Below are positions 12,621-13,545 of a stretch of 64,000 nucleotides of DNA, one piece after another; position 1 is the first letter of the stretch, and the number at the start of each line of letters is the position of its first letter. The DNA is from Octopus vulgaris. Taxonomy: Eukaryota. The notes beneath the pieces are model-generated. The model had not been told where the DNA came from, made no database searches, and saw only the letters and a program-made list of their open reading frames with translations. The stretch is from contig OX597825.1 of the NCBI GenBank assembly GCA_951406725.2, forward strand, positions 43,586,001-43,650,000. The letters are read 5' to 3'. A program made the translations under genes and the position numbers.

Positions 12621-13545
12621 TAATAATATCAGGGTAATAAAGGTTTTAGAAATTTTTACTACCAGTTGCCTAGCGTATAGAAAAATTAGTCAAATAGACT
12701 ACATATTATTCATATAAAATATAGTGTACATTTAAACACATTAAGGGGCTTCCATTATATGAATCCTTTACGCTCGAAAGAACAGCTAAAGTCCAACAAA
12801 AAAGAATGGGCTTGCGCGGTGGTTTTGAAAAAATTAAAATGTATAAGCAAGATGATGGATTGGCCTCGTGTTAATATATTTAATCTTGGCGTCCCTGTTG
12901 AAGAAGACTTCGCCTGGTAGATTATTTTATTTACTAAAATAAGTCAGAAACCATGGTCCAGGTAAAAGATGGTAAAAGCTTTTATTTTTCATTCCCTTCG
13001 AGAATTTATCCCTAATTAGTGGTTTGGACTTTAGCTGTTCTTTCTAGTGTAAAGGATTCCTATGATGGAAACCTCTTAATGTGTTTAAATGTACACTGTA
13101 TTTTATATGAATAATATATAGTCTATTGATTAATTTTTCTATACGCTAGGCCACTGGTAGTAAAAATTTCTAAAATCTTTATTACCCTGATATTAATTAT
13201 GTATAATGATTTCTGGTAGATTCGTTCGAAGAAATTGCCGGCGTCCTTTTACTGCGAACAAAAATGACTGCGCTTGCGCGGTGGATTTGAAAATATTAAA
13301 ATGTATAAGCAAGATGCTGGATTGGCCTTGTGTTTATATATTTAATCTTGGCGTCCCTGTTGAGGAAGACTTCGCCTGGTAAATTATTTGGTTCAGGTAA
13401 AAGATGATAAATGATTTTAGTTTTCATTCCCTTCGAGAATTTATCCCGAATTAGTGGTTTGGACTTTAGCTGTTCTTTCTAGCGTAAGGGATTCCTATGA
13501 TGGAAACCTTTTAATGTGTTTAAATGTACACTGTATTTTATATAT
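12621..13545 (+). mobile_element. Non-coding HHR element E1: inverted arm plus partial tandem of a 462-nt unit
   Basis: 12624-12796 is an inverted copy of 13023-13194. 12795-13110 recurs at 13257-13543 (gcttgcgcggtgg at 12810 and 13272). No ORF; ends in (TA)n. Confidence 0.8.
12894..12962 (+). ncRNA. Hammerhead ribozyme variant (TTGAAGA core)
   Basis: cctg-TTGAAGA-a-gactt...aagtc-a-GAAA-ccatgg-TC-cagg: palindromic stem III, cleavage triplet GUC. Confidence 0.72.

Follow-up and report, generated by a model that had tools for sequence, protein, structure and literature searches.

Introduction

The closest described counterparts of the locus reported here are Hydra-clade Penelope-like elements (PLEs), minimal PLE hammerheads, non-LTR retrozymes and a Poseidon element of Anolis. 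In PLE insertions, a partial tandem is accompanied on its 5' side by a 5'-truncated copy in inverted orientation, and Hydra PLEs target (TA)n and are characterized by the protein motifs RWK, DKT, CxCx5C, CxxC and CxH (Craig et al. 2021, PMC8557442). The hammerheads of PLEs are distinguished by one nucleotide that sits between 9 and 10.1, a G10.1-C11.1 pair and a palindromic helix III, and their activity as a class is low and dimer-dependent (Cervera and de la Pena 2014, PMC4209133), a review also giving dimer-only, low activity as class behaviour (PMC6765202). Among published motifs, whose counts of C3-G8 are biased because the underlying descriptor favoured CUGANGA, 53 of the 56 rows of PMC4209133 Fig S3 have C3-G8, two have U3-A8 and one has U3-G8, while all 26 Hydra rows of PMC8557442 File S2 carry CTGA. 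Most of these Hydra rows have an extra base before GAA, and an A precedes GAAA in one of the 56 rows of Fig S3. The sole U3-G8 row is the PLE-linked Saccoglossus kowalevskii(1), with the core UUGAAGAA (PMC4209133). Natural U3-A8 covariation has been described, as has a U4C variant that has reduced activity and still supports viroid infection (Perreault et al., PMC3088659).

Non-LTR retrozymes have been proposed as derivatives of PLE pLTRs, and are called active when at least two consecutive units contain a complete hammerhead (Li et al., bioRxiv 10.64898/2026.07.22.740005). Their sizes are given as 51-972 bp in the same work and as 150-450 bp by Cervera and de la Pena 2020 (PMC7229834), and D. 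willistoni has a tandem repeat of 450 bp that bears a PLE hammerhead (PMC4209133). For the Anolis PLE, catalytic mutants of the hammerhead leave insertion unaffected in vitro (Frangieh et al. 2024, PMC11167929).

Layout of the insertion

The window analysed here is a 64,000-nt stretch of Octopus vulgaris contig OX597825.1, consisting of microsatellite-rich animal DNA with many broken retroelements. Positions 12624-13556 contain an inverted arm followed by a partial direct tandem:

12624-12796, minus strand: inverted, 5'-truncated copy of the element's 3' end, equivalent to 13024-13195 (blastn, junction sequences, alignment)
12795-13256, plus strand: unit 1, 462 nt, without PLE coding remnant, left edge at the inversion junction (blastn; Pfam and PLE profiles negative)
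13196-13256, plus strand: 61-nt single-copy segment between the end of arm homology and the start of unit 2 (blastn)
13257-13543, plus strand: unit 2, partial, equivalent to 12795-13108 minus 27 nt, end ambiguous to 13556 (blastn)
13539-13723, no strand: (TA)n microsatellite abutting the right end (Tandem Repeats Finder, flanks)

Self-blastn of the window aligns the arm with 13024-13195 at 93.1% identity over 173 columns (11 mismatches in 172 aligned nt against unit 1) and gives a direct match of 12795-13120 with 13257-13556 at an offset of 462, bearing out the arm and the roughly 1.6 units of period 462 reported in the preliminary description (about 1.6-1.7 units by our measure). Outside a single 27-nt gap, units 1 and 2 differ by 19 substitutions in 287 aligned nt; unit 1 has 32.7% GC. 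At 12795-12796 the arm's inner end meets the left boundary of the direct repeat, the two overlapping by 2 nt (AA). A 21-mer common to the three copies occurs three times in the window and in none of 100 shuffles, and an exact 21-mer scan of bacterial and archaeal genomes returned no matches. A bacterial promoter scan remained at chance level and is irrelevant here.

At the right side, the end of unit 2 is secure at 13543, positions 13544-13556 being ambiguous within (TA)n. This microsatellite is the probable target site or the site of a later truncation, and a (TA)n run also lies ~55 nt from the left end of the insertion. The two 3' ends of the insertion differ by 75-87 nt, more than the published PLE tail of 30-40 nt and to that extent at odds with a PLE-type event; this may reflect a long tail or later truncation. 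An extension of the arm beyond 13195 was dropped because the bases belong to a flanking repeat also present at 11908-11973.

To the left of the arm, 12 nt away, lies a 110-nt near-perfect palindrome (12502-12611). A frameshifted GIY-YIG remnant (12030-12298), ~325 nt from the arm, is bracketed by the two copies of a 66-nt direct repeat (11908-11973/12553-12618, 83%); palindrome and direct repeat are possibly target DNA copied during PLE insertions. The GIY-YIG remnant was rejected as a part of the same element, as the outer end of the arm intervenes and no sequence is shared.

A PLE-type hammerhead with an uncompensated U3-G8 core

The ribozyme features of the two units are as follows:

12894-12962, plus strand: type I hammerhead of PLE (Hydra-like) architecture (descriptor scans; compared with PMC4209133 Fig S3 and PMC8557442 File S2)
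12898-12904, plus strand: core TTGAAGA, U3 with G8, uncompensated (sequence)
12950-12957, plus strand: palindrome ACCATGGT of helix III (-11.2 kcal/mol as a self-duplex; probability of pairing within the molecule <=0.003)
13356-13397, plus strand: broken unit 2 hammerhead, with CCTG, TTGAGGA (13360-13366), deletion, TGGTT and CAGG

In unit 1 the 4-bp helix I pairs CCTG (12894-12897) with CAGG (12959-12962), and the 5-bp helix II pairs GACTT (12906-12910) with AAGTC (12941-12945) across a 30-nt loop, with an extra A flanking helix II on each side (A12905 and A12946). GAAA follows at 12947-12950, and the predicted cut falls after C12958 (GUC). From there it is 237 nt to the end of the arm homology and 150-162 nt to that of unit 2; the corresponding distances at the other hammerhead loci of the window are 37-186 nt. 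The motif thereby combines the minimal marks of a PLE hammerhead (extra base after A9, G10.1-C11.1, GAAA) with a palindromic helix III, an NUH site and a helix I in the 3-7 bp range. A Watson-Crick 3-8 pair (C3-G8 or U3-A8) is absent, both units having U3-G8.

The TTGAAGA core and palindromic stem III first noticed in unit 1 are therefore confirmed at 12894-12962, and so is the observation that unit 2 keeps TTGAGGA while having lost its GAAA half: a 27-nt deletion at 13388/13389, corresponding to unit 1 positions 12927-12953, has taken away helix II's 3' strand together with GAAA and ACCA (half of the palindrome). Position 17 is T in unit 2.

Occurrence of the motif in the window

Helix II is closed by an A-A pair, on account of which a strict hammerhead descriptor missed the 12894-12962 motif. 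A relaxed descriptor, whose fixed requirements were helix I, helix II and a palindrome as helix III, core positions 3 and 4 being free, found seven hits at five loci in the window; 200 block shuffles gave 0.03 hits on average (six of the 200 had one hit each). The cores are CCGAAGA in three hits and CCGACGA, CTGACGA, CTGAAGA and TTGAAGA in one each, so that pyrimidines occupy both free positions in 7/7; five of the seven depart from the canonical base at position 3 or 4, four of them by U4C. Inverted repeats are present at all five loci, the six hits other than that in unit 1 lie in or beside inverted repeats, and two of the other four loci follow GIY-YIG-type ORFs.

The hammerhead motif is real and not a chance occurrence. 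That it might be a chance match within some other repeat, such as a foldback or satellite, is highly improbable. This reading could draw on the Rfam searches, which returned no match at gathering score for the whole window and, for 12500-13600, 51 matches to E 10 that include no hammerhead family and consist of hairpin-type chance matches, as well as on the predicted minimum-energy fold, which differs from the hammerhead, and on two departures from the strict textbook core. The fold of the 106-nt motif is no better than that of shuffles (z -0.19). It is opposed by the excess of hits over shuffled windows and by the recurrence of the same architecture behind the PLE ORFs of the window and in published Hydra elements.

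The other hammerhead loci differ in age and completeness. Positions 6891-8849 hold a young Hydra-type PLE with inverted arms 99.5% identical over 829 nt, each arm containing a hammerhead (8756-8818, plus strand; 6922-6984, minus strand) with a CCGAAGA (U4C) core. Its GIY-YIG-type ORF pair (7179-7838/7935-8561) has the Hydra CxCx5C, CxxC and CxH motifs and resembles, by eye and without alignment, Hydra-1_Obim of Octopus. A truncated PLE at 29095-30003 has arms 81% identical, a hammerhead with a canonical CTGAAGA core and a very long helix II region, and a truncated GIY-YIG-type ORF (29240-29578) with CxxC and CxH only. Two further hammerhead elements, at 61453-62361 and 62447-63317, have no detectable ORF and both show duplicated flanking segments. 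The latter has a CCGAAGA core, while the arms of the former differ at core position 4 (CTGACGA versus CCGACGA), a difference that could be a CpG change in either direction. The U4C families represented in the window are those at 8756, 62018 and 62801.

Coding content and the ORF-less question

None of the 21 open frames of the element reaches the Pfam cut-off, two giving weak unrelated matches. From 151 hits, 13 near-full-length and 111 C-terminal relatives of the neighbouring PLE were selected to build PLE profiles of the whole ORF and of its N- and C-terminus, and all of these score below 0 bits on the unit. The C-terminal profile detects the GIY-YIG remnant at 12001 with E 5e-14 as a positive control, the N-terminal profile having no such control in the window; when longer relatives of the neighbour ORF were sought, 511 candidates yielded one hit. 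By blastp against six PLE ORFs of the window the element and the two other ORF-less loci were negative, alongside two positive controls. One frame that by eye resembled a Hydra N-terminus was ruled out by the profile search. The unit is thus not an autonomous PLE, as no RT or GIY-YIG ORF is detectable in it.

The preliminary description took the locus for a third ORF-less family. In part this stands: the unit has no significant DNA similarity to the other four hammerhead loci of the window, sharing only short AT-rich matches with them, and therefore represents a separate family, and it is one of three loci without a detectable ORF. However, 5' truncation would give the same picture here as an ORF-less family: the sequence upstream of the two cores amounts to no more than 103 and 164 nt, whereas the distance from stop codon to core is 201 and 293 nt in the ORF-linked neighbours (some published Hydra elements have shorter spacing, ~125 nt in Hydra-1_Obim by a by-eye count; PMC8557442). 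With so little upstream sequence, two successive truncated PLE copies cannot be told apart from a 462-nt monomer read 1.6 times round.

Comparison with described elements

Like Hydra-clade PLEs, the element combines an inverted truncated copy and a partial tandem with a (TA)n target, and has a sense-strand hammerhead near the 3' end with extra bases flanking helix II (PMC8557442). Helix III of Hydra-1_oBim is acca-a-tggt, and ACCA/TGGT also occur in unit 1. Unlike the Hydra-clade PLEs, the element has no ORF, has U3 for C3 and has a much longer loop II (30 nt); four short probes from it found no match in the supplement of PMC8557442. The likeness in the core is closest to Saccoglossus kowalevskii(1), which is PLE-linked and has the identical core together with G10.1-C11.1 and a 4-bp helix I. 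It differs in lacking a helix III insert, and in PMC4209133 it represents its family as a single case and is not given as a consensus. The U3 families of S. mansoni are compensated (U3-A8), unlike the uncompensated U3-G8 seen here (PMC4209133).

With non-LTR retrozymes the unit shares the form of a short, non-coding, low-GC (<50%) tandem unit with a type I hammerhead (PMC7229834, PMC7761336). It differs in having 1.6 units, one complete motif and an attached inverted arm, and its motif is of the PLE-type minimal kind, whereas that of retrozymes is canonical with loop-loop contacts. The high self-pairing of retrozymes is not seen (z -0.78; 23/100 shuffles fold as well), which in a decayed copy carries little weight, and as the unit 2 motif is destroyed the locus falls short of two complete consecutive motifs. 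The Poseidon element PAc of Anolis serves as a mechanistic model, in which reverse transcription starts internally downstream of the hammerhead at an AT-rich target, two start sites yield the tail and ribozyme catalysis is dispensable (PMC11167929). PAc is unlike our element in being autonomous, in belonging to another clade, in having C3-G8 and in that its ORF begins at the ribozyme; no ORF start is detectable in the unit. Overall the locus resembles a PLE-mobilised non-coding end and is neither an autonomous PLE nor an active retrozyme.

Predicted folding and dimer dependence

Beyond the low probability of intramolecular helix III, that of helix I falls from 0.72 in the 106-nt fragment to 0.01 in the two-unit transcript. 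A trans-dimer is favoured by 5.2 kcal/mol in a crude energy sum, the best of six motifs tested, which by this modelling would leave some activity possible, and the helix III palindrome would likewise predispose the RNA to dimers. The partner for a cis dimer, the unit 2 motif, is destroyed. A hybrid hammerhead combining the enzyme half of unit 1 with the substrate strand of unit 2 was discarded (pair probability 0.000), as was a competing structure in which loop II pairs with helix I's 3' strand (probability <0.05). Dimer dependence had earlier been linked to the U3 variant; the palindrome and the scarcity of intramolecular helix III agree with dimerization as such, but it is a class trait and not a consequence of U3. 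Since dimer-only, low activity is how the class behaves, it is not special to this copy.

Origin and effect of U3

U3 is present in both units, and the chance that the same site mutated independently in each copy is about 1e-3. The comparison of the two sequences thus supports the earlier claim that U3 predates the two units. If the three copies stem from one event, U3 would therefore already have been in the RNA template. Its presence there is no proof of selection for U3, because PLE insertion is unaffected by catalytic mutants of the hammerhead (PMC11167929). Substitutions between the units are as frequent in the hammerhead part (3/42) as elsewhere (16/245; Fisher p 0.75), and this test, which has little power, gives no indication that the motif is under selection.

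The expectation that U3-G8 should lower activity is supported indirectly, by analogy with a type III hammerhead scan in which activity was low for every single mutant of this part of the core (Roberts et al., PMC9901934). Literature searches turned up no kinetic measurements for C3U or U3-G8; such variants may be described in Lunse et al. 2017 and Arkhipova et al. 2017. A U3-G8 core is already in print for PLE hammerheads, and the ribozyme of the present element is probably weak or silent.

Origin of the locus

The locus is an ordinary PLE-type relic of an already described kind. Its partial tandem, to whose 5' side a 5'-truncated copy is joined in inverted orientation, is the standard PLE insertion layout described in PMC8557442, which the preliminary description had missed. 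The hammerhead is of type I and lies on the sense strand near the 3' end, and the (TA)n preference of the Hydra clade is apparent at the right end, a feature common to other PLE clades. The unit contains no RT or endonuclease sequence and shows no DNA similarity to the PLEs of the window, so that it is the layout and the type of ribozyme that connect it with PLEs. We consider it probable that one old PLE-type retrotransposition event left a non-coding terminal (pLTR) copy that has since decayed; the protein driving it was most likely an RT/GIY-YIG protein of the Hydra clade.

In such an event, a source RNA already carrying U3 would have been transcribed. By extension from the Anolis PLE in vitro, the protein would then have nicked AT-rich DNA and reverse transcription would have started within the RNA, at a point 150-237 nt downstream of where the hammerhead cuts, with no need for cleavage by the ribozyme. 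About 1.6 head-to-tail units, the number present at the locus, would have been laid down, and a second truncated cDNA would have been joined to them in inverted orientation, giving the 2-nt overlap. Since then the copies have come to differ by ~6.5% pairwise, with the ribozyme changing as fast as the rest and unit 2 losing its GAAA half. The remaining motif would fold only as a dimer of two transcripts, and with U3-G8 its cleavage would be slow or would not occur. As for the template, we put an ORF-less 462-nt pLTR multimer or circle, resembling a non-LTR retrozyme, at a little better than even, and two successive 5'-truncated copies of an ordinary ORF-bearing PLE at a little short of even.

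Similar full-length divergences (11/172 for the arm versus unit 1 and 19/287 for unit 1 versus unit 2) support a single event with U3 in the template. They also argue against local duplication, by which a single truncated PLE end would have inserted with C3, mutated to U3 in place and then been duplicated at the DNA level, the period of 462 and the common U3 being in that case uninformative on a family. In the 80 nt common to the three copies the units differ from each other at three sites, compared with seven and eight against the arm, and local duplications and hairpins abound in this region (for example 12502-12611 and 11908-11973/12553-12618), both of which would suit such a history. Private changes in these 80 nt number six in the arm, one in unit 1 and two in unit 2, a split that slightly favours an arm older than the two units (p 0.13; 0.04 with the arm named beforehand). 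Yet the left breakpoint of the duplication would need to have hit the inversion junction by chance, and local duplication is decidedly unlikely.

The single retrotransposition event with U3 in its template has also to be weighed against a true ORF-less 462-nt family with a U3-G8 consensus, whose attenuated, dimer-only ribozyme would slowly process multimers to monomers or circles. In keeping with such a family, U3 occurs in both units, 462 nt is compatible with the sizes given for non-LTR retrozymes (51-972 bp; 150-450 bp) and is near the 450-bp tandem of D. willistoni, the trans-dimer energy is favourable, and the five window hits that are non-canonical at position 3 or 4 include both arms of the young ORF-bearing element. 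We nevertheless consider it unlikely: there is a single locus, from which a family consensus cannot be shown; the unit 2 ribozyme is destroyed; the unit is not unusually self-paired and shows no conservation signal; and C3-G8 predominates in the published rows, in counts biased by their descriptor.

A more specific proposal, which we regard as quite unlikely, is a non-autonomous, Hydra-PLE-derived 462-nt family with a U3-G8 consensus, in a host whose PLE hammerheads keep the helices and palindrome and detune the core, the U4C cores of the neighbouring loci (four of the seven hits, those of the young ORF-bearing element among them) being further cases. If true, the motif would be kept as a throttle or as a scaffold for RNA dimerisation or protein binding, and not as an efficient knife, and the purpose of PLE hammerheads would be open to genome-wide statistics.

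Decayed PLE-type ends are found by the thousand in animal genomes, and the layout, the ribozyme type, the dimer dependence and the U3-G8 core of this element all have precedents. The window does show frequent core variants at positions 3 and 4, which are missed by standard CUGANGA descriptors and by Rfam; if these variants are the family consensus, they bear on the role of PLE hammerheads and on the proposed PLE origin of non-LTR retrozymes.

Other features of the window

Several retroelement remnants lie apart from the hammerhead loci. At 3549-5677 a broken RT (3549-4443, weak RVT_1) is followed by an ORF whose last 355 aa match a profile built from its relatives; this is apparently a chimeric PLE region, and the relaxed descriptor gave no hammerhead downstream of it. 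A GIY-YIG fragment of a different PLE type (50500-51279, minus strand; Pfam E 1e-4) likewise has no hammerhead hit nearby. A frameshifted LINE with AP endonuclease and RT domains occupies 43427-46306 on the minus strand. Three near-identical copies (98-100%) of a ~490-nt unit lie at 56480-59458 with (ATT)n runs between them, and an older related copy (73-78%) is found at 21480-22737.

Within the element, unit 2 contains a CpG-rich stretch, GCGCTTGCGC, at 13268-13281 (12806-12819 in unit 1), ~85 nt upstream of the core, and the sole match to GCGCNNGCGC in the window lies within this 13268-13281 stretch. It resembles an NRF1-type site, and could mark a putative internal promoter.
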